From: Candidatus Aldehydirespirator sp.
GTDB taxonomy: Bacteria; Actinomycetota; Acidimicrobiia; Acidimicrobiales; Aldehydirespiratoraceae
Length of the DNA: 64,000 nucleotides
Assembly (NCBI GenBank): GCA_965203575.1
Contig: OZ241894.1
Coordinates: 3,724,322 to 3,788,321 of the forward strand
Direction of reading: 5' to 3'
Position numbers and translations under genes: made by a program. How positions within the stretch are numbered: position 1 is the stretch's first letter; the number at the start of each line of letters is the position of its first letter. The notes beneath the pieces were generated by a model that worked only from the letters and a program-made list of their open reading frames with translations, was not told the origin of the DNA and made no database searches. Positions 10,358-64,000 of this stretch are shown here, piece by piece.

Positions 10358-11099
10358 TCTCAGGATTGTCCCGCATCCACAAACGCAGAAACTCCAGATA
10401 ATAGTCACGGCGTGTCTTCAACAACTCGTCACGATACTCACGATCCAACGAAGGATACGATGCCGCAAACTTGTGGCACTCATGTTGGAAGTCGTCAAAA
10501 TCATCCCCAGTCATGCCATACTGCTCCTGATAGGATTCGAACATCTCTGCCGAAATAAGATAGTACCCATCATCGTAGTAATATAGCCTTATGTCTGGCC
10601 ACCGCGACTGTGTGCTGCACAAGTCCAGCGAGTCATAGAACGCGTCGCGGAGGAGGCTTACAGCCCGTTCAACCTTCGGCGGCATGGCCTCACTAGCCCC
10701 GAAGAACACGAGTTTGACAACCTGCTCGAAGTGGTCGCGGTCGCGCGCCTCAGGGCTGAGCGACCGGAAGTCTTCGCTCATGACCGCCTCCTCTTCAGCC
10801 GCTCGACGCTCCTCGAATGTCCGGTAGCGCGCCAGAGCCGAGCCGAACCGGTTGGAGATATACTCGTTCACAAGATGATCTACACCGATCTCCTCCTCCG
10901 TGTACCCGCCAAACTTCACACCTTGCGTGCTGCCAGCAGTGCCTTGGGCCTCTGGTGATGCTGACACTCCTTCTGTCGGACTGTTCGCATCGCTGCATGA
11001 CACTGCCAACACGACAACCAACCCGACCAGCACAGTCCATATCCACAGCCATCTTGACGGCGATCGAAGCGCTCTAGAATGCACAGCACTATACCTCAT
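10233..11099 (-). CDS. lipoprotein, candidate immunity protein for the PLA2-like toxin (family member 1)
   Basis: Start placed at MRYSAVHSRALRSPSRWLWIWTVLVGLVVVLAVSCSD (lipobox AVSC). The ATG lies 11 nt inside the 3' end of the toxin gene. The C-terminal block HECHKFAASYPSLDREYRDELLKTRRDYYLEFLRLWMRDNPEMVVPLDYENSVNQPYQDYVRRQCMEAEDPEGCARGEGVSYP recurs after every toxin cassette. Confidence 0.6.
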   Translation of the reverse strand: MRYSAVHSRALRSPSRWLWIWTVLVGLVVVLAVSCSDANSPTEGVSASPEAQGTAGSTQGVKFGGYTEEEIGVDHLVNEYISNRFGSALARYRTFEERRAAEEEAVMSEDFRSLSPEARDRDHFEQVVKLVFFGASEAMPPKVERAVSLLRDAFYDSLDLCSTQSRWPDIRLYYYDDGYYLISAEMFESYQEQYGMTGDDFDDFQHECHKFAASYPSLDREYRDELLKTRRDYYLEFLRLWMRDNPEMVVPLDYENSVNQPYQDYVRRQCMEAEDPEGCARGEGVSYP

Positions 11100-14000
11100 C
11101 GGTACCGTAGCTGATTCGGGACATCGGGTATAACCGCACTCCAAGCTTCATAGCATCGGCAACCTCCCTGCATTTCTCCACATCAGCATCCTCAAGGGTC
11201 CACGTATAGTGTTTATGGGTCACTGGTGTGCGGCCTTTATTGGCTTCACATAGGCGTTTGAGGTCCTCGTTGAATCTGTCGTCTGCTTGTTTTCGTGTGG
11301 TCTCGTTCCATGCGCCTGCGTGTTGGAGGTGGTGCTCGACCCGGTAGAGGTTGCGCCAGTTGAAGTCGTGTCTCATGCAGGCGAACACGAACGACACCGT
11401 CTGGGTTCCGAACGTGGCGTGGTCGCGGATGTATTGGGCCAGGTCCACCAGTCGGGGAGTCATGTACAGCGCGCTTTCTCCGTATTCGCTGAGGATCAGG
11501 GCGTTGATCCCTGATTCGAGGCCTTGGACCAACTCCTGGGGGATGCTGCATCTGTCGGTGATGAACGGCAGCCACGGATACTTTGCGCTGGGCGGGTCGA
11601 ACGGATCGTTGAGATCGGTGGGGCAGGCGGAGTCGGCGCCGTAGCAGATGCTCCCTCTGGCGTCGAGGAACTTCTCGAGGGTCAACCCGCCAGAGACGGT
11701 CTTGCCGACCTCCTTGACATCGCGGTGGACCTTGACGGCTCGGGGGAATGTCACGGCCAGCTCGAACTTGCCCTCGCCGGCGGTGCTTTGGGTGGGGGCG
11801 ACCTCTATGAGGTAGTCGCCGCCAGGCAGCGCCCGCGTGATGACGGGATCGGCACCCTGGCGCGCCATCGCTGACGCGACGCGCTGCGCCCGGCGCTGTG
11901 CCCTTCCGGGCCCCGCCGGCGCAGCATCCCCAGAGTGGAGCTTCCACAGCGTCACCGACGGCGTCCCCCCTGAGCCCACGAGCGGCGGCGGCTTCCGACC
12001 GGGCCGCGACACAGCTGTGAGGACCGGCTTGAGGGCGATGGTTCCCGACAGCGTTTCCGCGGTGTGGTAGGGCACCGAGAACGACCAGTACGCCGCGCTG
12101 CGGCCGCTCTGGCTCAGCGACGTGCAGCCGGGCCCCGCCTCGTCGCCGTAGGAGTCGAACATCGCCCCAACGGAGAGCCGCCCCCACCATGTGCGGCCCC
12201 GGTCATTCAGAGCGGTCGCCGCACAGCCGGCGGGCATCGTCTCCAGCGGCACGCATCTGCGGCTGCCGTCGAAGCGGGGGGCCTTGCCTTCGGGGCATTT
12301 GGCGGTGATCTCGAAGGTGACGGTGTCGGTGCGGCTCTGGGTGAGGAGCCTCTGGGTGAAGTCCACCGCGACGGTGTAGGTGCCCGCGAGCTGAGCGGTG
12401 GCGCTGAGGGTGGCCAGCCCGCCGAACTCGGCATCGTCAGAGGCGTTGACCTTCGCCGTCAGCCCCGGCTGCGACACCGACTTGACCGACACCGCCGCGG
12501 CCGCGGGCGAGAACGTGAAGCGCCTGCTCAACGTCTCACCCACCGTCATTGTGTAGCTGTCCTCCCGGCCCCCGACGGTGATCTCCGGGGGCACGCAGAC
12601 GCGGTCGGCGCGCCGGGTGTGCAACCGGGGGCAGGCCGCCTCCACAGCGAATGTGGGCCGCTTGACGCTTCCGGGCTGCGCCAGCGCCAGAGTCACGGTG
12701 TAGCTGCCCGCATGCGTCGGGGTGCCCGCCACCCCCGCGCCGCTGCCGCTGTCGCGGAACTTGAGGCTCAGCCCCGACGGCTTTGTCGACTCCACCGACA
12801 TGCCCGCGCCCGGCGGCCCGTAGGTCCAGCCCGTGCTGAACAGCTCCCCCACCACGACGTCATGGCTCCCGTCGAGGTCCTTCACCCAGCCCGGCGCCGA
12901 CGCCGACAACCTCACCGTCAACGTGAAGGCTCCCGCGGTGCGCTCATCGCGGTGGGTCGTCTCGATCGTGTGAACACCCGCGGCGAGACCCCGCACCGAG
13001 ACCCGCGGCGCGGCGCCGAAGTCCCCCAGAGGTTCCACGCCGCTGCCGGACGCCGGCAACAGATCCAGATAGGCCGACGCAGCGCCGTCGGGGACCAACT
13101 CCACCGCCACGTCCGCAGCAGTGTTGAGGACCAGCCTGTAGCTCATGGCGTAGTAGGGGGTCTGCGCGTCGCCGCGCTGCGACGACACGCAGCCCGCACC
13201 CCAGCGGCCCGCCACAACGACCGGCGACGCGTCCACCGCGAGATCCTGGCTGCATGAGGGATCCAGCACCTTGAAGACCGCCCGTGCGGTGCTGCGCTTG
13301 AGCCGCGAATGGGTGCAATGCACATACACCTTGATGTCGTCGACAGCCCTCGCTCTGACCGTCACGGTGCGCACCGCGCCGGTTCGGGGGCTGACCGAGG
13401 CCTCGTTGTTGGTCCTGCCCAGCAGCAGGGCGCGGCATGAGGCGTCCGCGGGCGTGACCGTGAACGATGCCGTCATCGTGCCCGGCCCTGTGCGAGAGCC
13501 GCCCACATAGCCATCGATCTGCACCCTCTCAAGCCGCGCATGATCCCCATGGCAGCCCGTCGGCGCCGAACCACCGCCGTGCGCGTCACGATGAGCCTGC
13601 GTGCTCTTCACCCACACCGGATGCACACCAGACCCGAAATCAGGATTGTGAGCATGCTCACCGTCCGCGCAGCGCGGCGGCGCCGTGGTCGTCGTCGGCG
13701 TGACCGGCTCAGGCGGCGCCGTGGTCGTCGTCGGCGTGACCGGCTCAGGCGGCGCCGTGGTCGTCGTCGGCGTGACCGGCTCAGGCGGCGCCGTGGTCGT
13801 CGTCGGCGTGACCGGCTCAGGCGGCGCCGTGGTCGTCGTCGGCGTGGCCGGCTCAGGCGGCGCCGTGGTCGTCGTCGGCGTGGCCGGCTCGGGCGGAGTC
13901 GTTGGGGTTGTGGGTGTGAGGGTGCAGTAGCGGGCGCCTCGGAAGTTGCGCAGGTCGTAGCCGGAATCGCAGTAGTAGGTCCTGTTGGGTGCCCGGGTGG

Positions 14001-14787
14001 CAGTCACAATGCGGCAGATGGACCCGGCCCGGGTCCAGCCGGCCCGGCATCCGGTGACTGTGTCGGGGGCCTGGGAGCGCCGCACGCTGCGCTGGCATCG
14101 GGTGTCGCTCGCGGCGGCCCAGCCCGACGGGCACGGCCCCGGCGTCGCCGGGGCGCGTGTGGCGCGGTAGGTGCGGGTGCACGTCGATCCCGAGCCGCTG
14201 TAGAAGCGCGCGCACGCCGCCCAGCGGCCGCTGCGCACCACCGGCCGCGGCGTGCTGCGAGTGCACTTCGAGCCTCGCAGCGTCCAGCCCGCGCCACAGA
14301 CGTAGCCGCCATTTGACGGCGGACCCTCCCAGCGGGCCGCCTTGGTGTGCACGCAGAGGCTCCCGACCGCGGTCCCGAGGACGCAGTCGCCATAGACAGT
14401 GCTCAACCAGCGGCGCTTGTAGCTCAGCTTGCACGAAGACCCCGACAGCGTCCCGCCGACCAGACACGACAACGCGCCGGGAACCTGCGGGCGCGCCTTG
14501 GTCTCCAGCACGCTGTACCAGCAGCGCCCGTCACGCTGCAACACGCCGCGCACGCACACCGAACGCGTCGCCGGCAACTCGGTGCGCGCCTGCTCGCAGA
14601 CGCCGGAGGACCGGTTGAACGAATACCCCGAATCGCACCAGAGCCGCACCTTCGCAGCGCGGGCGCTCTGAGCCTCAGCAACCCCGAGCCCCCGATCAGA
14701 AAGATCAGGGAACCCGGCCACCCCATACAACAGCACCGACGCCGCCACCAGCACCAGCACCCAACGCCGCGACCTGCGCCGGGCCAT
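11089..14787 (-). CDS. large Sec-secreted polymorphic toxin: Cys-rich repeats, PT-rich linker, Ig-like/beta-sandwich domains, C-terminal prokaryotic phospholipase A2-like domain
   Basis: Start placed at MARRRSRRWVLVLVAASVLLYGVAG. The C-terminus reads ...PFITDRCSIP...VSFVFACMRHDFNWRNLYRVEHH...DDRFNEDLKRLC...EKCREVADAMKLGV. This matches, as I recall it, the Streptomyces-type secreted PLA2 pattern (TDxC..P, ACxRHDFxYRNY, FxxDMKRxC). Mid-region motifs such as AGVAGTPTHAGSYTVTLA resemble putative-Ig repeats. Confidence 0.8.
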   Translation of the reverse strand: MARRRSRRWVLVLVAASVLLYGVAGFPDLSDRGLGVAEAQSARAAKVRLWCDSGYSFNRSSGVCEQARTELPATRSVCVRGVLQRDGRCWYSVLETKARPQVPGALSCLVGGTLSGSSCKLSYKRRWLSTVYGDCVLGTAVGSLCVHTKAARWEGPPSNGGYVCGAGWTLRGSKCTRSTPRPVVRSGRWAACARFYSGSGSTCTRTYRATRAPATPGPCPSGWAAASDTRCQRSVRRSQAPDTVTGCRAGWTRAGSICRIVTATRAPNRTYYCDSGYDLRNFRGARYCTLTPTTPTTPPEPATPTTTTAPPEPATPTTTTAPPEPVTPTTTTAPPEPVTPTTTTAPPEPVTPTTTTAPPEPVTPTTTTAPPRCADGEHAHNPDFGSGVHPVWVKSTQAHRDAHGGGSAPTGCHGDHARLERVQIDGYVGGSRTGPGTMTASFTVTPADASCRALLLGRTNNEASVSPRTGAVRTVTVRARAVDDIKVYVHCTHSRLKRSTARAVFKVLDPSCSQDLAVDASPVVVAGRWGAGCVSSQRGDAQTPYYAMSYRLVLNTAADVAVELVPDGAASAYLDLLPASGSGVEPLGDFGAAPRVSVRGLAAGVHTIETTHRDERTAGAFTLTVRLSASAPGWVKDLDGSHDVVVGELFSTGWTYGPPGAGMSVESTKPSGLSLKFRDSGSGAGVAGTPTHAGSYTVTLALAQPGSVKRPTFAVEAACPRLHTRRADRVCVPPEITVGGREDSYTMTVGETLSRRFTFSPAAAAVSVKSVSQPGLTAKVNASDDAEFGGLATLSATAQLAGTYTVAVDFTQRLLTQSRTDTVTFEITAKCPEGKAPRFDGSRRCVPLETMPAGCAATALNDRGRTWWGRLSVGAMFDSYGDEAGPGCTSLSQSGRSAAYWSFSVPYHTAETLSGTIALKPVLTAVSRPGRKPPPLVGSGGTPSVTLWKLHSGDAAPAGPGRAQRRAQRVASAMARQGADPVITRALPGGDYLIEVAPTQSTAGEGKFELAVTFPRAVKVHRDVKEVGKTVSGGLTLEKFLDARGSICYGADSACPTDLNDPFDPPSAKYPWLPFITDRCSIPQELVQGLESGINALILSEYGESALYMTPRLVDLAQYIRDHATFGTQTVSFVFACMRHDFNWRNLYRVEHHLQHAGAWNETTRKQADDRFNEDLKRLCEANKGRTPVTHKHYTWTLEDADVEKCREVADAMKLGVRLYPMSRISYGTDEV
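13679..13894. repeat. 6 x 36-bp perfect or near-perfect tandem repeat encoding (APPEP[VA]TPTTTT)6 inside the toxin gene
   Basis: The unit ggcgccgtggtcgtcgtcggcgtgaccggctcaggc was counted directly. The last two units carry gtggcc instead of gtgacc. Confidence 0.95.
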
Positions 14788-15148
14788 CACACCCACCGCC
14801 GCAGCACCACGCCACAACCCTCAAACAACGGCTCCCCGCCCCCCCCCCGGCGGGCACGGCAAATCGCCGCCGCCGAACTCAACACCGGCCGCCGGCAGCG
14901 CGGCCCAACCCCAAGAGCCCACCACTCATCGGAGGCCCCCATGCTGCGGTTGTCGCTCCCTGCGGCGACCATGGCGAACCACCCTAGCAGCAGAACAAGC
15001 CTCACATCCCTAGGAGAGTGTTGAGCAACACGGGTTTCTGGCTGCTGGGTTTGCTGGGGTGGCGCGGTGGTTGTGTGGGTGTGGTGGTTGTGTTGGGGGT
15101 TGTTCGGCTCAGGCGGGTGCGCCGGGGGGTGCGGGCGCGGCGCCCGGT
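14716..15148. repeat. segmental repeat, copy 1 (toxin 5' end plus about 360 bp upstream region); partner at 21646-22049
   Basis: Direct comparison. The copies are identical apart from a 30-bp deletion, a C10 versus C11 tract and a few substitutions in the partner. Confidence 0.9.
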
Positions 15149-15619: not shown

Positions 15620-15743
15620 TCAGGGATAGCTCACCCCCTCACCCCGCGCGCACCCCTCGGGATCCTCCGTTTCCATGCACTGCTGGCGCACATAGTCCTG
15701 ATGAGGCTGATTCACGCTGTTCTCATAATCCAACTGCACAACC
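15620..15743 (-). pseudogene. 3' fragment (about 40 codons) of an immunity-family lipoprotein gene
   Basis: Translates as ..VVQLDYENSVNQPHQDYVRQQCMETEDPEGCARGEGVSYP-stop. Homology to 10233-10357 ends abruptly at 15743. Confidence 0.7.
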
Positions 15744-15815
15744 GTCACAAGTCCGCGTCGTCACTGCGGTCCCGCACACTCTCGTGGGTCGCTGCCGCAG
15801 CGTCACCGCGCGGGC

Positions 15816-16556
15816 TCATGGAAGCGTCACCCGCTCCGCACGGGCGCACTCCTCGGGATCGTCTGTCTCAAGACACGCCTGGATCATCATATCCTCCCAA
15901 GGCTGGTTGGCTCCCTCGTGATACTCGATGGGCACCACCCAATCAGGATTAGCAGCCATCCATTCCCGCGCAATCTCCACATAGTGCGCTCGTCGCTTCG
16001 CGAGCAACTCGTCACGGTACTCCGGGTCCAGCGTCGGATATGTGGCCGCATACTTGGCGCACTCATGACGCAGATCCAAGAACATCTCCAACGTCAGCCC
16101 AAAGTCCCGCTCATACTGCTCGCCCATGTCCTGGGACACGTCATAGAGCTGCACACCGGGCCAGCCCGCGTCGGCCGCGCACTCATCCATCGCCTCAATC
16201 TCGGCGTCGTACAACACACCGCCTTCTAGAGCGACATCGGGAGGCAGCGTATCGCCCGCTACAGCCAGTATCACCCCGACCCTGACCTCAAAGATGTTGC
16301 GCTCACGCTCATGTCCAGTACCCGCGGAAGAATCAGGAAGATCGCGATTCATCTCCTCAATCGTCCGATATCGGGCGAACCATAATGAACCCGAGATCAT
16401 CTGGTCATCAACGAGTTCATCGAATCCCAGTTCCTCGTCTGTGTACTGGCGTGGAGGATCCTGTGAACTGCATGCCCCAACCACAACAAGCACGACCACT
16501 GCGGTCAAGTATCTCAGCGAACCCTGTCTGAGAGGCCTCTCCATATGTGTCTGCAT
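15816..16556 (-). CDS. lipoprotein, immunity-family member 2 (divergent)
   Basis: 246 aa with lipobox VVGAC. The C-terminal block RHECAKYAATYPTLDPEYRDELLAKRRAHYVEIAREWMAANPDWVVPIEYHEGANQPWEDMMIQACLETDDPEECARAERVTLP is about half identical to the block in the other family members. Confidence 0.6.
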   Translation of the reverse strand: MQTHMERPLRQGSLRYLTAVVVLVVVGACSSQDPPRQYTDEELGFDELVDDQMISGSLWFARYRTIEEMNRDLPDSSAGTGHERERNIFEVRVGVILAVAGDTLPPDVALEGGVLYDAEIEAMDECAADAGWPGVQLYDVSQDMGEQYERDFGLTLEMFLDLRHECAKYAATYPTLDPEYRDELLAKRRAHYVEIAREWMAANPDWVVPIEYHEGANQPWEDMMIQACLETDDPEECARAERVTLP

Positions 16557-56004: not shown

Positions 56005-56121
56005 TCCCCGGACAGTCGCGCGGCATCCTGGGCCGATCTGACGGTTTTCTTGGTCTAGTTGTATCGTAAATCTTCGGTTAGACAGTGCACAAATCTAGGG
56101 TTACGCCATAAGCTCCTCGTC

Positions 56122-57393
56122 GTGAGGTATGTGGAGCGCCATCTTGGGCCGCGAGTCCGCGAAGCATTGGACACGTTCCGGGCGGTGGTGCTGCACGGCG
56201 CTCGCCAGAGCGGCAAGACCACCCTCGCCAAACAGGTCGCCGCCGAACGGGGCGGCACCTACACCACGCTCGACGACGAGCAGACCCGGCTGGCCGCACT
56301 GGAGGATCCCTTCACCTTCCTGTGCGAACAACCGCATCCGATGGTCATAGACGAGATCCAGCTCGGTGGCGACCGGGTGGTCCGCGCCGTCAAGATGGCC
56401 GTCGACGACGATCCGGCGACGGGCCGTTTCCTGCTGACGGGGTCCACCGACTTCTTGTCGGTGCCCACAATCAGCGAGTCGTTGGCGGGACGGGCCGCCA
56501 TCCTGCGGCTCTGGCCGATGTCCGCGGCCGAGATGAACGACACTGCGGGCTGCGGTCTCGCCGACTGGTTCAAGGGGCGGGTCCCGGTCGGCGATGCCTC
56601 GCAGCTGACTCGCTCCGACTACCTGGAGATGGTCTGTGCGGGCGGGTACCCCGAGGCGGCGGAGTTGAACCCGTCGGCACGGCGGATGTGGTTCGAGAGC
56701 TACGCGGAGACGGTGATGAGCCGCGACGTGGCTGCGCTCGCCGACGTGCGGCGTGCCGACGCCCTGCGCGCCGTCCTGCAACTCGCCGCGGCGCGCACCT
56801 CCGGCGAGCTCAACGTCGCCGACTGGTGCCGCCGGCTGGGCATCGACCGCGGCACGCTGGAGGCCTACCTGGGCTGGCTGCGCATGGTCTTTCTCATGCA
56901 CGAACTGCCCGCCTGGACCCGCAACCTCACAGCCCGCGTCGTGAAACGACCCAAGCTCCACCTTGCCGACACCGGCCTTGCCGCCGCGCTCATCAACGTC
57001 GATCCCGACGCTCTGCGACCAGCCACCGCCGTGGCTACCGGGCCGTTGCTTGAGACCTTCGCCGCCAACGAGGCCGCCCGCCAACTCTCATCCAGCGGCG
57101 AGCCGCTGCATTTGCACCACTACCGCGACAGCGCCGGCCACGAAGTCGACCTAGTGATCGAGCGCGCCGACGGCGCCGTCGTCGCAGTGGAGGTCAAAGG
57201 CACCGCATCGCCCGGCACCGACCACCTCAAACACCTCGCCTGGATGCGCGACCACCTCGACACCGTGTCCCCAGACACTTTCCGCGCCGGCGTACTGCTG
57301 CACACCGGACCCCGAAGCCTCAAGGTAGGAGATCGCCTTTACTCCGCCCCCATCGACACTCTCTGGCACCCAACCGCGACCCGCCACAACTGA
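56122..57393 (+). CDS. AAA-superfamily ATPase with DUF4143-like C-terminal domain
   Basis: Start moved to GTG (VRYVERHLGPRVREALDTFRAVVLHGARQSGKTTLA). Has a Walker A motif and a Walker B-like MVIDEIQ. Confidence 0.7.
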   Translation: MRYVERHLGPRVREALDTFRAVVLHGARQSGKTTLAKQVAAERGGTYTTLDDEQTRLAALEDPFTFLCEQPHPMVIDEIQLGGDRVVRAVKMAVDDDPATGRFLLTGSTDFLSVPTISESLAGRAAILRLWPMSAAEMNDTAGCGLADWFKGRVPVGDASQLTRSDYLEMVCAGGYPEAAELNPSARRMWFESYAETVMSRDVAALADVRRADALRAVLQLAAARTSGELNVADWCRRLGIDRGTLEAYLGWLRMVFLMHELPAWTRNLTARVVKRPKLHLADTGLAAALINVDPDALRPATAVATGPLLETFAANEAARQLSSSGEPLHLHHYRDSAGHEVDLVIERADGAVVAVEVKGTASPGTDHLKHLAWMRDHLDTVSPDTFRAGVLLHTGPRSLKVGDRLYSAPIDTLWHPTATRHN

Positions 57394-57467
57394 TCAATCT
57401 GAAGCACGGCGAACCGCCCGTGTCGGGTGGGCCATGAAGCGTTCCGGCCTGTGCTCAGCATCGCAGC

Positions 57468-57520
57468 ATTGACACCAAGCACTACCGAGAATTGACATAG
57501 GAGACTACCGAGAATCGACA
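57468..57520. repeat. three TTGACA-type hexamers at an exact 23-nt period, including a 17-bp direct repeat (ACTACCGAGAAT[TC]GACA x2)
   Basis: Read directly: cATTGACAccaagcACTACCGAGAATTGACAtaggagACTACCGAGAATCGACAac. Confidence 0.6.
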
Positions 57521-57599
57521 ACAGCAGAAGGTTACTGGCGACAGGACCAACCGGCCGGCCCTCGGGAACAGGCCCACCAAACGCTCGGCGAGTCTGCTG

Positions 57600-58355
57600 C
57601 TACCAGCGCTCGTGGCGGGGGCGGACGTTGCAGCGGTTGATCCACTCCTGCACCATCGCCTCGTCGCCGAGATCGATGCCGTCATCGAGCATCTCGGTGA
57701 CGAGGTTGGTCGTGGGCGAGCGGTTGTCCGGGTCCGCGGCGTTGCTCCTCATGTCGACGAAGCACTCACGGGCCGCCTCAAGGTTCAGCTCGAGCAACTC
57801 CGCTGCGAGACCGCGGCGCCGCGCTGCGGAGCGAAGCCACATGGGGAACACCCACTCGACGATGTCATGCCACTCGTCGTCGCACACTGACTTGGCTGGG
57901 ATCCACACGCACAGGAAATGCTCCACTCGGCGCGGGCTCCAGCACAGCGGATCGCCGTCGGACCACGCATAGGCGAACCGGCACACCGCGCTGGCCACAG
58001 ACTCGACCTCGTCGGGCATGGCCTCCTCGGAGACGTCGACGAACTCCTCGCAGAGGCTGTGGATCTCCTCTTCGGTCAGCGATCCCGGGAACCTCGCTCC
58101 CCCGTCGGGCAGCAACGCGACCCGCTGGGCGACCAGGGCCCGCAACTCGTGGTCTAGCCCGTCGTCGCCGTCATATCCGAGATCGGTGTGGTCGCGTTGT
58201 TCCAGCGCGGCCTCGACCATGACGCGCGCGTCGGCCAAGTCGAGCGGCCGCAACACCGTGTGGGTCTGTTGCAGGAACGGGCACTCGATCGCCTCGATCG
58301 GTGGGCCATACACGAAGTGACACGCCAATGAGCCCTGCGAACCGTTGACGGTCAC
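57600..58355 (-). CDS. hypothetical acidic, Cys/Trp-rich protein
   Basis: Start placed at the GTG that overlaps the upstream stop (GTGA). Track ORF 57600-58520 extends further upstream in a region that overlaps the previous gene. Confidence 0.45.
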   Translation of the reverse strand: MTVNGSQGSLACHFVYGPPIEAIECPFLQQTHTVLRPLDLADARVMVEAALEQRDHTDLGYDGDDGLDHELRALVAQRVALLPDGGARFPGSLTEEEIHSLCEEFVDVSEEAMPDEVESVASAVCRFAYAWSDGDPLCWSPRRVEHFLCVWIPAKSVCDDEWHDIVEWVFPMWLRSAARRRGLAAELLELNLEAARECFVDMRSNAADPDNRSPTTNLVTEMLDDGIDLGDEAMVQEWINRCNVRPRHERW

Positions 58356-58705
58356 GCCGAGACCACGGCCGGGCCGTAGACGCTGATCGCCGCCGCCACC
58401 ATCGCAGCGGCCCTTCCGTTGGGGCAGGCCTCCGCCGCGGCCAGCGCCTTCGAAGCGTCCATCACCCGGGAGCCACCAGGACCAACCGGACGGAACAGGA
58501 TCTGCGCGGACGACGCCCACTCCTCGGCGTTGTCAACATCGTCGCACTCGGCCACAACGCTGGCAGCCGCATCCAACAACACCTGCTCCAATGGCAGGCC
58601 CTCGCCCGGCATAGGAGCAGGCCTCTGCTCGCGGCGGGGCCCACCGGGCCTCGTTCCCTTCGGGGTGACACGACCGCCCCGACAACGGCGACGTGGACGT
58701 GGCAT
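58352..58705 (-). CDS. hypothetical protein with basic N-terminus (MPRPRRRCRGGRVTPKGTRP)
   Basis: 117 aa, translationally coupled to the downstream ORF. Confidence 0.4.
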   Translation of the reverse strand: MPRPRRRCRGGRVTPKGTRPGGPRREQRPAPMPGEGLPLEQVLLDAAASVVAECDDVDNAEEWASSAQILFRPVGPGGSRVMDASKALAAAEACPNGRAAAMVAAAISVYGPAVVSA

Positions 58706-59153
58706 CAGATGTCTCCCTCCCTGGCGTCTCGACCCCTGCAGAGTCGGGCGCGGCGCAAGCTCGCCCCCCGGGCTGTGTCTAGCCGATGATCGCCCCGTCG
58801 CAGCGGAGCACGGTCCAAGCGCTTAGCCCGGCCACAGGCCCTGCTGCACCGGCCTCGCGTGCCGCGAGGGGGCCTTGAGCGTCGCCCCACACATCTTGAC
58901 TGTCACACACTGACGTGACAATAGGCGGGTGATGCACGGCGAACGCGGCCAACACGAACGATCGAGGTCCTGCGCGCGCCTCTTCGATCTTGCCTCCACA
59001 GAAGCGGCGGCGACCAAGTCCCTGCCCGTACACCGCGAGCAGGCCCTGGAGTGTGACAATGAACTAGCTATCACTCAGGTGGAGTTGCCGGACGGTCTGC
59101 TGGACCTAGGCAACCCGCAGCGAGACCTGCCGCGCATCGCGAGAGATCCGGCC

Positions 59154-60005
59154 ATGACCGATGCCATCGCCCGAGCGCTGAACGCGGTCGCCACGACCCA
59201 GCGCCTGGCTGTCGACGATGCCGCTACAGCCGTGGCCGCGCTGCCCGCCGAGTCCGTGCACCTAGTGGTCACCAGCCCGCCGTACTGGAACCTCAAGGAA
59301 TACCCCGAACGCGACGGCCAACTCGGCTGGATCAATGACTACGAGAGGTTCCTGGACCGGCTCGCACCGGTGTGGCAGGCTTGCCATCGGGCGCTGGTGC
59401 CCGGTGGCCGACTCGTGGTCGTCGTCGGGGACGTGTGCCTCTCTCGGCGGCGCAACGGTGGGCGCCACACCGTTGTGCCCCTGCACGCCTCAATCGTTGA
59501 GCAGTGCAGACACATCGGCTACGACAACTTGTCCCCGATCATCTGGCACAAGATCGCCAACGCTCGCCACGAGGTCTCCAACAGCAACGGCTCGTTTCTC
59601 GGCAAGCCGTACGAGCCGAATGCGGTGCTCAAGAACGACATCGAGTACATCCTGATGCAGCGCAAGCCCGGTGGCTACCGGTCGGTGCCGGTGAGGGAGC
59701 GCGTGCTCAGCCTCATCCCGAAGGACCTTCACCACGACTGGTTCCGCCAGATATGGCAAGGCCCGTCCGGCGCGTCGACCCGCGACCATCCCGCCCCGTA
59801 CCCGGAGGAACTCGCCGTCCGGCTCGTACGCATGTTCAGCTTCGCAGGCGACACAGTGTGCGACCCCTTCGTGGGTTCTGGCACGACACTGGCAGCCGCA
59901 GCCCGCTGGGGACGCTGCGGCATCGGGGTCGACATCGAGCCGTCCTACATCGAGCAGGCCCGCCAGCGGCTGGCGGGAATACCCTCCGCTCGCCTACTCG
60001 AATGA
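59154..60005 (+). CDS. N4-cytosine/N6-adenine DNA methyltransferase (beta class, PF01555-like)
   Basis: Motif IV VVTSPPYW precedes motif I DPFVGSGTT, which is the beta-class order. Start placed at MTDAIARALN; the track ORF starts 75 codons earlier at 58929. Confidence 0.8.
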   Translation: MTDAIARALNAVATTQRLAVDDAATAVAALPAESVHLVVTSPPYWNLKEYPERDGQLGWINDYERFLDRLAPVWQACHRALVPGGRLVVVVGDVCLSRRRNGGRHTVVPLHASIVEQCRHIGYDNLSPIIWHKIANARHEVSNSNGSFLGKPYEPNAVLKNDIEYILMQRKPGGYRSVPVRERVLSLIPKDLHHDWFRQIWQGPSGASTRDHPAPYPEELAVRLVRMFSFAGDTVCDPFVGSGTTLAAAARWGRCGIGVDIEPSYIEQARQRLAGIPSARLLE

Positions 60006-60319
60006 TCACGATCCACGACGCGATCACCGATTTGCATCGCATCCGTCGAGCCGAGGGCGGCGGCCTGGAATGGCGCAAGGTCGACCTCGACACAGCCAGG
60101 CTCACCGTGAGCCAGCAGTTGCTGTCATTGGAGTACAAGCTCATGGAGAGCGGCCCCAAGACCCCCGATGGCCGCCGCACGATCGAACACGACCCCACAC
60201 CGTCACACAACTGCGGCCACATCGACAGAGCCTCGGGGGAGACACAGCCCCCCACCAATGCGCTAGCTTCCGACAGTCCTAGGCGGCGGTCGGCGCTCAG
60301 CGCCAAAGCGTTCCCGTGA
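60002..60319 (+). pseudogene. internal fragment of a tyrosine recombinase (phage integrase) gene
   Basis: LEWRKVDLDTARLTVSQQL....SGPKTPDGRRTIEHDP resembles the L.W.DVDL..G.L.V..Q.....PKT..S.RTI.L segment of integrases. The catalytic C-terminal half is missing and the tail is Ser/Arg/Pro-rich. Confidence 0.45.
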
Positions 60320-60450
60320 GGCTGCCATTGCAGGAGAGAGTTACTGACGTGTCCACCGCCTCCCGCAACTCGCAGGAGAGACAGCTACGAATCACTCCTG
60401 CCGAGCATGCGGGGGCCTCTGATCGGTGCGCCGTTGATCGCGAGTTCCTT

Positions 60451-61635
60451 ATGGCCGAGAAGCGCCCCGACTACGAGGGCACGCCAGTTCCGCTCCGGCT
60501 GGTGGACCTCTTTGCTGGGGGCGGCGGTCTCACGGTTGGGGTTGCGGAGGCGGCGCTGCGAATGGAGCGGGGAATGGAGGTCGCTCTCGCCGTCGAGAAC
60601 GACGTTCACGCTGCAGATGTCTACGAACTCAACTTCCCGAGCGCGAACCTGGTGCGCGCCGGCACCGAGACATTGTTCGATGGTGGGTTGGGAGGCCCGG
60701 TCACGGTGTCGGAAAGGCGCATTGCCCTTGCGGTTGATGAGGTCGATGTTCTTGTGGCCGGGCCACCGTGTCAGGGGCATTCGAACCTCAACAACCACAC
60801 TCGGCGCGAGGACCCCCGCAATGCTCTGTACTTGCGGGCGGTGCGCGCCACCGAGGTGCTCCAGCCAACTCTCGTCGTGATCGAGAACGTCCCGACGGTG
60901 CGACACGACAAGGGCGGTGTCGTGGAATGCTCGACCCAAGTCCTTGAGGCTGCCGGGTACTCGGTCGCGAGCGACGTGTTTCATCTTGTGAAGTTCGGTG
61001 TGCCTCAGCGGCGGCGACGCCACATCCTGCTGGCCACGAACAATGACCGGATCGACCTGTCCGTCATGGGCCGCTTGGGTTCGGGGTGCGATGACCGCGC
61101 CGAGCGGTCGGTGCGGTGGGCGATCGAAGATCTCGTCGACCAGACGGCACAGTCGGGGCCCGACGCTGCCTCAAGGCCGACGCCCGTCAACCTTGAGCGG
61201 ATGCAGTGGCTCATCGATCGGGACGCGTACGACCTTCCGAACGAGAGGCGCCCCAAGTGCCATCAGGGCCCGCACAGCTACAACTCGATGTACGGGCGGC
61301 TGAGGTGGGATGCTCCCGCACAGACGATCACGACCGGGTTCGGGTGCATGGGCCAGGGCAGGTTCGTGCACCCGGCGAAGCCTCGCACGATCACGCCCCA
61401 TGAGGCGGCACGTCTGCAGACGCTGCCGGACTTCTTCGACCTCGACACCCGCAAGGGTCGGGGGGTTTGGGCAAGAGTGATCGGCAACGCTGTTCCTCCT
61501 CTATTCGTCGTGCATCTGCTGGCGCCGCTGATCGGTGCGCTTCCCCGTCGTGCTGTCGAAGAGACCCGACTCGCTGACAGCACGTCGCACGAGTTTGCAG
61601 TGCCGCTCGTGCTCGCCGGCGCTCCGGCGAGTTAG
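60451..61635 (+). CDS. DNA (cytosine-5)-methyltransferase
   Basis: Start placed at MAEKRPDYEG. Motif I is LVDLFAGGGGLTVG, motif IV is GPPCQGHS, motif VI is ENV, motif VIII is GVPQRRRR and motif X is GNAVPP. Confidence 0.9.
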   Translation: MAEKRPDYEGTPVPLRLVDLFAGGGGLTVGVAEAALRMERGMEVALAVENDVHAADVYELNFPSANLVRAGTETLFDGGLGGPVTVSERRIALAVDEVDVLVAGPPCQGHSNLNNHTRREDPRNALYLRAVRATEVLQPTLVVIENVPTVRHDKGGVVECSTQVLEAAGYSVASDVFHLVKFGVPQRRRRHILLATNNDRIDLSVMGRLGSGCDDRAERSVRWAIEDLVDQTAQSGPDAASRPTPVNLERMQWLIDRDAYDLPNERRPKCHQGPHSYNSMYGRLRWDAPAQTITTGFGCMGQGRFVHPAKPRTITPHEAARLQTLPDFFDLDTRKGRGVWARVIGNAVPPLFVVHLLAPLIGALPRRAVEETRLADSTSHEFAVPLVLAGAPAS

Positions 61636-61637
61636 CC

Positions 61638-64000
61638 GTGGCCCCGCTCCGCTCCGCTGACGCGGAGGCCTTCGTCGCTTGGATGCTTGAGGGGGTCGTC
61701 GCTGACGCACGCGGCGACCGGGTGCAAGAGTTGGCAGTCGCGCCAGCTGGAAGGCTGTGGCTGGGTCGCCTTGCTCCCGAGATCGTCGTTCAACAGAGCC
61801 GCCTCGGGGAGCGAAGCGAGCGTCTTGAGCCATGCGAGATCGGACTGCGTCTGCGTCTGAGCGAGTTCGACGGCCGCACGGTGCGATGCACCGGCCGCTT
61901 CGTTGTGTGGCATGAGATCGACAGCAACGGCGATGCCGATTCGCCGAAGTGGCGCAAGCGTGGCCCCATCGAGGTGACTGCCGATCTCCCAACGCCGCGA
62001 ACGACCGGCGCCATCGAGTCCGCAGGCCGTAACGGCTTCGCTGCCGCGCTGGGAGCGGTCGGCGCCGCTGGCATGATTTGCGAGTTCCATTCGGAGATTG
62101 AAATCGGCAAGGACGGCCCGGAACTCGTCGTCACTCTGGTGAACCTCTCGCCGGAGGAACTGCCGAGATGGGACACCAATGTCTACGAGGCGCGCCTCTT
62201 CGTCAACGCCGGTGAGACGCTGCCCTTCACGCTTGACAACCTTCCGGACTCCTTCCGCTACGACCGCCGGGTCAGCGCCTACGGAGTGAACGGCAGCGTA
62301 AGACAGATCAATGACACGACCTTCTGCACCACTGATGTCGCCGTACACGACCAAGCGCGACTCACATACTGGGACGACGACCTGGGCCCTCCTCCCGACA
62401 TCACCTTCACGAACCTTGCCGCTGCCCCGATTCCAGCGCTTCGCCACCTTGTAGACGCATGTGAGACGTGGGGTGACCATCACTGGGCAACATCAGTCCT
62501 CGCCGATCGTGCCGCCGAGGAGGACTGGGACGACGGCATGCGGGCCGAAGCCGACTCCGAGGCGGGGAAGTTCCACGAGGAACTCGCGCGACTACGCCGA
62601 GGGTTGAGCCTTCTTGAGGACAACGAAGGCCTCCGCCGTAGTTTCAAACTGGCCAACGAAGCCTTCGCTCGGTCACCGCTGGTGTCGCACGCTCGGTGGC
62701 GGCCGTTCCAGCTCGGCTTTCTGCTCGCGAACGTCGCGTCCCTGCTGGACGACACCCCTAACGGAGATCGCGGCATCGTCGACACCTTGTGGTTCGCGAC
62801 CGGAGGCGGAAAGACCGAGACCTATCTGCTGTACCTCCTAACGGCTGCTTTCTTCGACCGGCTGCGGGGCAAGCGAGAGGGCATCACCTCCTGGGCCCGG
62901 TTCCCGCTCCGCATGCTCTCGCTACAACAGACCCAGCGCTTCGCCGACGTCCTCGCTGCGGCAGAACTAATACGCCGCGATGAGCAGATCCCTGGGCGTG
63001 AATTCTCCTTGGGATTCCTCGTGGGATCCGCCGGTACACCCAACAGAATCAGGCGAGGGTCTGACCACCGGCCGGGCGACCCTGACCCCAGCGATCCCCA
63101 CATGCCAGAGCGCTACAAGGTGCTGCTGCGCTGCCCCTTCTGCGGCAACGACGACCTCCAGATGCGCTTTGACCAGGAGCGCTGGGCACTAGACCACGTC
63201 TGTACCGACGAGCGGTGCCCGTGGGGAGGATGGCAGCTTCCATTTCGCGTCGTCGACGACGAGATCTATCGATCATTACCGACTGTCGTCCTCGGGACCC
63301 TCGACAAGGCTGCAAGCGTCTCCTTGCAGGCAGCGATGCGCGGCCTCTACGGCTCCCCTTCAGGTCGTTGTTCGGTCCCAAAGCACGGCTTTACATATGC
63401 CCCCCGCAGCGCCTCACCCGGAGGGTGCCTGTTCCCCGGATGCCGAGCGGACTCGGCTCCCCTTATCCAAGACGCCCACCTGTACGCGCCGACGATCCGC
63501 ATGCAAGACGAGCTCCACCTGTTGCGTGACAGCCTCGGCGCCGTTGACGCACACTACGAAGCACTCCTCGACGCGTTGCAGGACCACTACGGACCGAGGC
63601 CCAAGATCATCGCCTCGTCTGCGACCCTGGCTGGACACGGCGAGCAGGTCGCCGCCCTCTACCAACGCGAGGGCCGGACATTCCCCCATCCTGGACCGCA
63701 GGCGGGCAGATCTTTCTGGTCACAGGACACGCAGGCTCTGGCTCGCCGGTTCGCGGGGCTAGCGCCGCGCGGTGTGACGCTCGAATATGCCACCGACCAG
63801 TTGACCGAGTCGCTCCAGCGCGTGATCCGGCGAGCTGTCGACGACCCCGCGGCCGTTGCAGCGGACACCGGCATCGACGTCGCGGCACTCCCCGAACTGG
63901 TGCTCAACTACGGCGTCGACGTCGTCTACGGCTCCAACCTCAAAGACGTCGAAGCCGTCGCAAGATCCTTCGACTCGCAGATCCAGCTAGATCAGCCGGT
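61638..64000 (+). CDS. large defence-type SF2 DExH helicase-like protein with a zinc-ribbon insertion; N-terminal 787 codons only (runs off window)
   Basis: Not in the ORF track because no stop lies in the window. My translation from GTG at 61638, 2 nt after the C5-MTase stop, reads VAPLRSADAEAFVAWMLEG.... Motif I is WFATGGGKTETYLLYLL and motif Ia is RFPLRMLSLQQ. An inserted CPFCGNDD..x17..CTDERCPWGG follows. Motif II is RMQDELHLL and motif III is IASSATL. Confidence 0.75.
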   Translation, partial: MAPLRSADAEAFVAWMLEGVVADARGDRVQELAVAPAGRLWLGRLAPEIVVQQSRLGERSERLEPCEIGLRLRLSEFDGRTVRCTGRFVVWHEIDSNGDADSPKWRKRGPIEVTADLPTPRTTGAIESAGRNGFAAALGAVGAAGMICEFHSEIEIGKDGPELVVTLVNLSPEELPRWDTNVYEARLFVNAGETLPFTLDNLPDSFRYDRRVSAYGVNGSVRQINDTTFCTTDVAVHDQARLTYWDDDLGPPPDITFTNLAAAPIPALRHLVDACETWGDHHWATSVLADRAAEEDWDDGMRAEADSEAGKFHEELARLRRGLSLLEDNEGLRRSFKLANEAFARSPLVSHARWRPFQLGFLLANVASLLDDTPNGDRGIVDTLWFATGGGKTETYLLYLLTAAFFDRLRGKREGITSWARFPLRMLSLQQTQRFADVLAAAELIRRDEQIPGREFSLGFLVGSAGTPNRIRRGSDHRPGDPDPSDPHMPERYKVLLRCPFCGNDDLQMRFDQERWALDHVCTDERCPWGGWQLPFRVVDDEIYRSLPTVVLGTLDKAASVSLQAAMRGLYGSPSGRCSVPKHGFTYAPRSASPGGCLFPGCRADSAPLIQDAHLYAPTIRMQDELHLLRDSLGAVDAHYEALLDALQDHYGPRPKIIASSATLAGHGEQVAALYQREGRTFPHPGPQAGRSFWSQDTQALARRFAGLAPRGVTLEYATDQLTESLQRVIRRAVDDPAAVAADTGIDVAALPELVLNYGVDVVYGSNLKDVEAVARSFDSQIQLDQP

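Follow-up and report, generated by a model that had tools for sequence, protein, structure and literature searches.

Class 2 DISARM, an anti-phage system and the closest described relative of the locus considered here, is taken in the sense of a core triplet, drmABC, accompanied by the C5-cytosine methyltransferase gene drmMII and, on occasion, by drmE (Aparicio-Maldonado et al., bioRxiv 10.1101/2021.12.28.474362). Class 1, as found in Serratia sp. SCBI, consists of DrmD, DrmMI, DrmA, DrmB and DrmC plus DrmMII, and its DrmAB complex is available as a cryo-electron microscopy structure (PDB 7S9V/7S9W; bioRxiv 10.1101/2021.12.28.474362). DrmA belongs to the YprA helicase family, and it is only in the DISARM branch of that family that DUF1998 is consistently a gene of its own (bioRxiv 10.1101/2025.09.15.676423). 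Here we analyse a stretch of 64,000 nucleotides from Candidatus Aldehydirespirator sp. (contig OZ241894.1; the whole stretch is called the window below), whose last part, 60349-64000, very probably holds the beginning of a class 2 DISARM operon cut down to four genes, drmMII-drmA-drmB-drmC. A first-pass annotation, made from the sequence alone, had seen in this region a helicase module with two methylases and had hesitated between a DISARM class 2 system, Druantia type II, and a variant or entirely new arrangement. The DISARM guess was right, with the helicase corresponding to DrmA and the coupled C5 methylase to DrmMII, and the locus is indeed a variant in that it is a drmE-less form of class 2; it is a diverged DISARM and not a new defence system.

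The helicase gene and the methylase before it

The features of the operon that fall inside the window, as predicted from the sequence, are the following.

60349-61635, + strand: drmMII, C5-cytosine DNA methyltransferase (PF00145, NCBIfam dcm, PADLOC, intact motifs)
61549-61620, + strand: C-terminal tail of the methylase, probable relic of the drmE 3' end, eroded in the window (DrmE-tail profile)
61638-64000, + strand: drmA, first 787 of about 1030 codons, N-terminal domain and RecA1 (PADLOC, NCBIfam, 7s9v_A, Foldseek)
62796-62819, + strand: helicase motif I (Walker A), ATGGGKTE
63132-63218, + strand: four-cysteine zinc ribbon in RecA1, CPFC ... CTDERC, between motifs I and II
63507-63626, + strand: helicase motifs II (DELH, 63507) and III (SAT in SSAT, from 63615)

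Two bases past the methylase stop (61635), the GTG at 61638 opens a reading frame that continues unbroken for 787 codons to the window edge, with the superfamily 2 (SF2) helicase motifs ATGGGKTE, DELH and SAT that the first-pass annotation had named; the RecA2 domain falls outside the window. The profile and structure comparisons, with E-values that chance would not produce, identify this large open reading frame (ORF) as DrmA, the SF2/YprA-type helicase of DISARM. All six of its PADLOC matches are to DrmA models, the top one being PDLC02576 at 1.9e-86, and NCBIfam returns DISARM_DrmAS at 2.9e-74 (250 bits; cut-off 950) together with the DrmAL model. The complete DrmA of a related locus, L001 (1030 aa), is 93% identical to the window ORF across its 787 residues and matches the Serratia DrmA chain 7s9v_A at 1.2e-54, whereas the same query reaches Bacillus subtilis YprA (6znp_A) only at E = 0.009, over 49 residues. 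When an AlphaFold model of the window fragment was compared by Foldseek, chains 7s9v_A and 7s9w_A were the sole significant PDB matches (E = 3e-20, 780 columns); the model is mediocre (predicted local distance difference test 59.8, predicted template modelling score 0.52), which suffices for the choice of a family and not for a domain arrangement or a trigger loop. Because the Foldseek match to the DrmA chains spans 780 columns and the PADLOC DrmA profile aligns from residue 189 onward, the N-terminal region would be DrmA's own, and the approximately 330 residues previously regarded as uncharacterised turn out to be mostly ordinary DrmA.

The helicase motifs follow the same pattern. Motif I is invariant in 17 family members and aligns with TGGGKTE of Serratia DrmA, while DELH and SSAT, also family-invariant, align with QDEFHL and ASTAT. 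The zinc ribbon proposed inside the first RecA lobe is present with its four cysteines (C499, C502, C522 and C527, invariant across 17 DrmA family members); only the spacing of the second pair had been misread as C..C, and it is in fact the C-x4-C of CTDERC. This ribbon aligns with CPWCG...YCGDKKGRC of Serratia DrmA and, since the same insertion is found there, it can be considered a conserved trait of the DrmA family.

The methylase ORF is open from 60316 (60316-61635), and its alignment with seven relatives favours the GTG at 60349 as the likely start. That the enzyme is a complete C5 methylase, as first described, is borne out by Pfam DNA_methylase (PF00145, 8.7e-45), by NCBIfam dcm (2.8e-35) and by intact catalytic motifs I, IV, VI, VIII and X (FAGGGG, PPCQ, ENV, QRR and GNAV). 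Its best PADLOC model is the DruM-type PDLC00033 (1.5e-104), with DrmMII models reaching up to 3.3e-33; because the same DruM-type methylase also heads clear drmE-drmABC operons, the methylase model cannot separate DISARM from Druantia. The position right before drmA is kept in 7/7 relatives, and the window enzyme is 77-83% identical to the methylase heading their cassettes (L001-L007) and 56-59% identical to the drmMII product of drmE-bearing relatives. Judged by its sequence and place, the C5 methylase abutting drmA is the DrmMII partner, the presumed self-marking component of the system.

The cassette in its relatives and the missing drmE

The seven relatives, L001-L007, were found by a scan of species-representative genomes and show 88-93% protein identity to the window; all are metagenome-assembled genomes, six of them Acidimicrobiia, of which several come from sponges, and the seventh assigned to Dehalococcoidia by binning. 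Without exception they share one register of C5 methylase, DrmA (1029-1030 aa), DrmB (567 aa) and DrmC (250 aa), joined by a 2-nt gap, a 4-nt overlap between drmA and drmB and a 1-nt gap. Nucleotide identity of the cassette to the window is 85-89%, and the conserved block begins at about 60330, some 20 bp ahead of the methylase start, and stops in the relatives at the drmC stop codon, the flanks being unrelated among L001-L007, so that the borders of the block are those of its first and last genes. The cassette was found in at least eight different genomic contexts; it travels as one block between sites that are otherwise unrelated. No locus that covers them has a broken ORF for the methylase, drmA or drmB, and drmC is intact in six of the seven relatives; with median dN/dS (nonsynonymous to synonymous substitution rates) of 0.25 for the methylase, 0.14 for drmA, 0.10 for drmB and 0.19 for drmC, at dS of about 0.3-0.5, all four genes are under purifying selection.

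The downstream DUF1998 and phospholipase D (PLD) genes that the first-pass annotation had proposed to look for could be sought in these relatives, where a separate DrmB and a DrmC follow in every close relative; of the other genes it had listed, DrmE was not found in L001-L007, nor DruF or DruG among the neighbours scanned in L001 and L003. Since 7/7 relatives carry drmB and drmC after drmA, the genes past 64000 are almost certainly, by this comparison, the same two. DrmB of the relatives matches PADLOC DrmB at 1.4e-23, NCBIfam DrmB_fam at 1e-13 and 7s9v_B at 3.3e-6 over the DUF1998 cysteine cluster, and carries N-terminal zinc ribbons besides that C-terminal cluster. Their DrmC matches PLDc_2 (7.4e-12), DISARM_DrmC_I (1.1e-18) and PADLOC DrmC (1.6e-16), with a single HxKxxxxD (HKD) motif, HLKVLTSD. 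The relatives' downstream genes are therefore not an ordinary restriction-modification set, and their cassette shows what marks the DISARM branch, a helicase separated from its DUF1998 partner and, after these two, a PLD gene.

Some further observations concern the surroundings and distribution of the cassette. Between L004, the binned Dehalococcoidia, and L005/L006/L007, which are Acidimicrobiia, the cassette is about 93% identical at the nucleotide level across phyla, which implies either a recent cross-phylum transfer within sponge microbiomes or a mis-binned contig. A vsr homologue lies just past drmC on the opposite strand in 4/7 relatives (L002 14662-15039; L004/L005/L006 about 15669-16040, - strand). 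In L002 (10027-12378) and L003 (15630-17993) drmC is followed by a gene for a GHKL ATPase of 787 aa with two HATPase_c regions and weak PADLOC matches to Type II restriction endonuclease models; it is no conserved companion of the cassette and is perhaps a further defence gene.

The absence of drmE was placed in context by a wider survey of 56 metagenome loci together with contigs from Streptomyces, Nocardia, Dormiibacterota and a Roseomonas plasmid. In this DrmA lineage the genes usually run drmMII-vsr-drmE-drmA-drmB-drmC. Of the 54 non-redundant loci that have 2.4 kb or more of sequence upstream of drmA, 38 have drmE directly upstream, to which L036 adds a frameshifted drmE; the C5 methylase takes this place in only 8/54, namely the sponge clade including the window, and neither gene does in 7/54. 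The upstream protein (about 770-783 aa) matches PADLOC DrmE at 5.6e-6 and, weakly, Pfam DrmE_C. Neither tblastn nor a hidden Markov model (HMM) of 42 DrmE sequences detected DrmE in six frames of the 64-kb window, of L001-L007 or of L071, a sister contig of the window.

A trace of the missing gene may nevertheless persist in the methylase, which in the sponge clade bears an extension of about 35 residues past the catalytic domain. A tail HMM built from the final 45 residues of 42 DrmE proteins, for which 4000 shuffles gave a maximum of 7.7 bits, scored 16.4 bits on the tail of L002, 10.1 on L006, 8.8 on L004, 8.7 on L005, 8.2 on L003 and 7.5 on L007, so that in 6/8 sponge-clade methylases the last 25 or so residues are DrmE-like, about at or above the best shuffle, and the matches keep one register relative to the drmA start. 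The full-length DrmE HMM gave no score above shuffles on the methylases. The tail changes faster than the body of the methylase, and little of it is left in the window and L001. We read it as the likely scar of a drmE deletion: because the sponge-clade tails resemble the DrmE C-terminus in the same register, the four-gene form would have arisen from a six-gene ancestor, drmMII-vsr-drmE-drmA-drmB-drmC, by a deletion of vsr and nearly all of drmE that fused the methylase ORF to the last drmE codons. One can go further and imagine that the four-gene cassette is a working minimal DISARM independent of DrmE, in which the DrmE-derived tail of DrmMII might tether the methylase to DrmAB and so assume some of the role of DrmE; we consider this idea unlikely, the fast change and near loss of the tail speaking against it, and a more economical account is that the deletion only kept the translational-coupling region ahead of drmA.

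Other drmE-less arrangements occur in the family, in Streptomyces venetus, on the Roseomonas plasmid and in a clade at 45-51% identity, and in L010/L011 vsr is fused to the methylase. The Streptomyces venetus locus (L008/L009, 10001-23105) contains drmA-drmB-drmC without drmE and then, on the other strand, a C5 methylase, a HEPN (MAE_28990) gene, GmrSD_N and a second MZB-plus-helicase pair, in effect two YprA-type systems back to back, beside RepSA and helix-turn-helix genes of an integrative element. Plasmid pOT10-1 of Roseomonas sp. OT10 (L072, 6351-13881) encodes a distant variant with a DrmA of 46% identity, in the order sigma-70-family gene, drmA, drmB and C5 methylase, with vsr nearby and without drmE; RefSeq names its proteins 'helicase-related protein' and 'hypothetical protein'.

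A mechanism can be drawn from published DISARM work (PMC9142583; bioRxiv 10.1101/2021.12.28.474362; bioRxiv 10.1101/2025.09.15.676423). By analogy, DrmMII would methylate a host motif (5-methylcytosine) as a self mark, and a heterodimer of DrmA and DrmB would load on single-stranded 5' ends of incoming or replicating phage or plasmid DNA. DrmAB would then translocate with ATP, more actively on unmethylated DNA, and would stop replication and/or leave the DNA to a nuclease of the PLD type, for instance DrmC. The cassette itself displays intact catalytic motifs, operon structure, mobility and selective constraint.

These findings expose a large and tightly conserved actinobacterial and soil lineage of DISARM, in which DrmA measures about 1030 aa and over 120 clusters share 67-95% identity, and whose proteins are publicly annotated as 'helicase-related protein' or 'hypothetical protein'. 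Within it, a sponge-symbiont clade without vsr and drmE between methylase and drmA, and with its four remaining genes under purifying selection, amounts to a natural experiment on the dispensability of DrmE; a drmE-less derivative that appears to retain a visible deletion scar and has spread among sponge symbionts is a mildly interesting twist. Rule-based tools that require DrmE, such as the PADLOC type II rule, would probably miss the cassette as type II DISARM.

The surrounding island

Upstream of the cassette the window contains four further features.

58929-60005, + strand: beta-class N4/N6 DNA methyltransferase (Pfam PF01555 N6_N4_Mtase 4.4e-37; PADLOC Type II methyltransferase 6.1e-56)
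60041-60199, + strand: probable tyrosine-recombinase relic (weak tblastn matches to integrase genes)
57603-58612, - strand: pseudogene, divergent neighbour of the beta-class methylase, frameshifted and internally deleted
56059-57393: DUF4143/AAA_14 ATPase (PADLOC candidate family PDC-S01, 2.6e-144)

The beta-class methylase is as the first-pass annotation described it, with SPPY (residue 116) ahead of FVGSGTT (residue 314), and is a member of a very large group of site-specific methylases spread over several phyla. The two-methylase module built on it did not survive comparison: none of the seven related cassettes has the gene, which stands next to the cassette only in the window and in L071, a contig of 4 kb that shares 94.5% of its nucleotides with the window and represents a sister strain. 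It is an island neighbour and not a conserved DISARM component. As had been noted, no classical restriction endonuclease is detected near the methylases, and the beta-class enzyme is without an intact endonuclease partner. Its divergent neighbour was considered as such a partner and dropped, being a frameshifted and internally deleted pseudogene of an unannotated family without a Pfam or PADLOC match; relatives of 396-427 aa (e.g. P0121) match it in two frames, with about 59 residues missing between the pieces.

The decayed recombinase fragment reported between the two methylases is only partly borne out. The stretch aligns by tblastn with the same part of integrases in three unrelated loci (L032, L010/L011 and L024/L025), with 41% identity over 49 aa in L032 and 34% over 53 aa in L010/L011, the latter annotated as Pfam Phage_integrase; it has no Pfam match even at E <= 10 and no tblastn match in plasmids. 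We regard 60041-60199 as a probable, weakly supported tyrosine-recombinase relic just upstream of the cassette, part of its context and not a working component. Tyrosine integrase genes are also found a few kb upstream of six-gene operons (L010 1620-2675, L011 70-1275, L032 380-1444 and L024/L025 47-733), which suggests that the DISARM operon often travels on integrative elements and fits the relic.

From 56059 on, the GC content of third codon positions (GC3) falls to 0.75-0.84 from the 0.91-0.97 of core genes; no tRNA gene marking the island was found. The 2.9 kb at 56018-58885, with the ATPase and the pseudogene, form a separate insertion at the left edge of the island, since they are missing from L071, which joins about 56017 almost directly to about 58886. 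The beta-class methylase, the integrase relic, the DUF4143 ATPase and the pseudogene are the other cargo of one low-GC3 island.

Elsewhere in the window, a stretch of about 700 bp (975-1680) is 88% identical to L001 6294-6991 and holds a Fic/Doc-family gene (976-1368, - strand), which suggests a probable toxin-antitoxin module; in L001 the stretch is found 1.7 kb upstream of the cassette, in the window 59 kb away from it. A patchy region of lower GC at about 10-21 kb, where several ORFs are without a family match, includes an ORF of 1242 aa (11089-14817, - strand) that carries a prokaryotic phospholipase A2 domain at its C-terminus (1.2e-6) and a small phospholipase A2-like ORF (21196-21717, - strand).

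Alternative explanations and known systems

Several points weigh against the assignment to class 2 DISARM in a four-gene form. The PADLOC rule for type II DISARM requires DrmE, and the cassette fails it; the NCBIfam equivalog cut-offs (NF038325, NF038324 and NF038319) are likewise not reached, with 345.6 against 950 bits for DrmA, 51 against 240 for DrmB and 67.7 against 133 for DrmC, and it is because the proteins fall below these curated DISARM cut-offs that public records read 'helicase-related protein'. DrmB of the relatives does not reach the Pfam DUF1998/MZB models, and for the window drmB and drmC themselves lie outside and are predicted from relatives at 85-89% nucleotide identity. The DrmE-tail HMM, taken alone, is not significant for the window (2.0 bits) or L001 (-0.2 bits). 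Finally, DrmE is reported to be essential in the sole class 2 system tested (bioRxiv 10.1101/2021.12.28.474362), and a drmE-less cassette might accordingly be defective.

This last point leads to the explanation that the cassette is a decaying, non-functional remnant of six-gene DISARM that has drifted since the loss of drmE. The drmC of L007 (14795-15355) is indeed shortened to 186 codons, with the conserved block there stopping early, at about 15328; the window island holds a pseudogene and an integrase relic, and the DrmE-derived tail appears to be eroding. Yet the ORFs have stayed intact at dS of about 0.3-0.5 (drmC in 6/7), every gene shows dN/dS of 0.10-0.25, the cassette reached at least eight genomic contexts after the deletion, and the family contains the other drmE-less arrangements mentioned above, all of which makes decay quite improbable. 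We find it still harder to accept a two-methylase composite, in which the beta-class enzyme would serve as a working DISARM partner in the manner of class 1 with its DrmMI and DrmMII. The two methylase genes do share a strand in the window and L071, with 343 bp between them, and Serratia class 1 DISARM uses two methylases (bioRxiv 10.1101/2021.12.28.474362), but L071 is a sister of the window and hence not independent, and neither the seven related cassettes nor the metagenome loci of the survey have the beta-class gene. In addition, the integrase-like relic separates the two methylases, the conserved block starts downstream of the beta-class gene, and this gene belongs to PF01555, a huge general Type II-like family, whereas DrmMI is of the PF13659 class. 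Class 1 DISARM itself was rejected for want of DrmD and DrmMI: neither the SNF2 protein DrmD nor the PglX-like DrmMI had a match among the genes scanned beside the cassette in the window and L001, where the gene upstream of the cassette is NucS-like.

For Druantia type II, the combination of a DruM methylase with the giant DruE helicase, the argument in favour is the methylase itself, whose top PADLOC model is DruM. As the same type of methylase heads drmE-drmABC operons, and as the helicase matches only DrmA, has a length of 1030 aa and precedes a PLD gene and a DUF1998-type protein encoded apart from it, we see hardly any chance for this assignment, which the first-pass annotation had offered beside DISARM; PADLOC gave no DruE, DruF or DruG match for the window helicase or in the scanned neighbourhoods of L001 and L003. 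The probability is practically negligible for a housekeeping repair helicase of the YprA/MrfA type standing beside a solitary Dcm-like methylase, even though DrmA lies within the YprA superfamily and vsr accompanies the methylase in relatives: the YprA match (0.009) compares with 1.2e-54 for DrmA, the DUF1998 module is split off and followed by a PLD nuclease, and the cassette is mobile and patchily distributed, lying in islands of low GC3 together with integrases and further genes of a defence type. ARMADA-type systems were rejected on architecture and model matches. A drmE-less class 2 DISARM thus remains the preferred reading, and the locus can be compared on these terms with the described systems.

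The six-gene actinobacterial and soil lineage (e.g. L015, L010/L011 and L065) is the nearest, with a DrmA 55-79% identical, orthologous drmMII, DrmB and DrmC and the same overlaps; it represents the direct ancestor-like form, from which the window clade differs by the loss of vsr and drmE between methylase and drmA. The class 2 system of Bacillus paralicheniformis 9945a (drmE-drmA-drmB-drmC-drmMII; Ofir et al. 2018, summarised in bioRxiv 10.1101/2021.12.28.474362 and PMC9142583) likewise combines a C5 methylase with DrmA, a separate DrmB and a PLD-type DrmC, and the two would presumably share their logic, in which methylation labels self and DrmAB attacks DNA from outside. Unlike it, the window cassette is without drmE and has its methylase first, abutting drmA; its proteins are distant, below the NCBIfam equivalog cut-offs, with a DrmA of 1030 aa; relatives in its lineage carry vsr inside the operon; and its host is a high-GC, sponge-associated actinobacterium. 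With class 1 of Serratia sp. SCBI, homology extends over the helicase core of DrmA, including the RecA1 zinc ribbon, and over the DUF1998 cysteine cluster of DrmB, although the Serratia DrmA has 1325 aa and the one described here is about 300 residues shorter, mostly at the N-terminus. Druantia type II (DruM, DruF, DruG and DruE) has in common a C5 methylase of the same subfamily and a YprA-superfamily helicase, but DruE is a giant fused helicase-DUF1998 protein, whereas helicase and DUF1998 are separate genes in this cassette. The YprA/MrfA repair helicases, in turn, are single polypeptides with fused OB-CON-DUF1998, usually accompanied by MrfB, while here no MrfB is seen and DUF1998 stands as a gene of its own, as it does in the DISARM branch.

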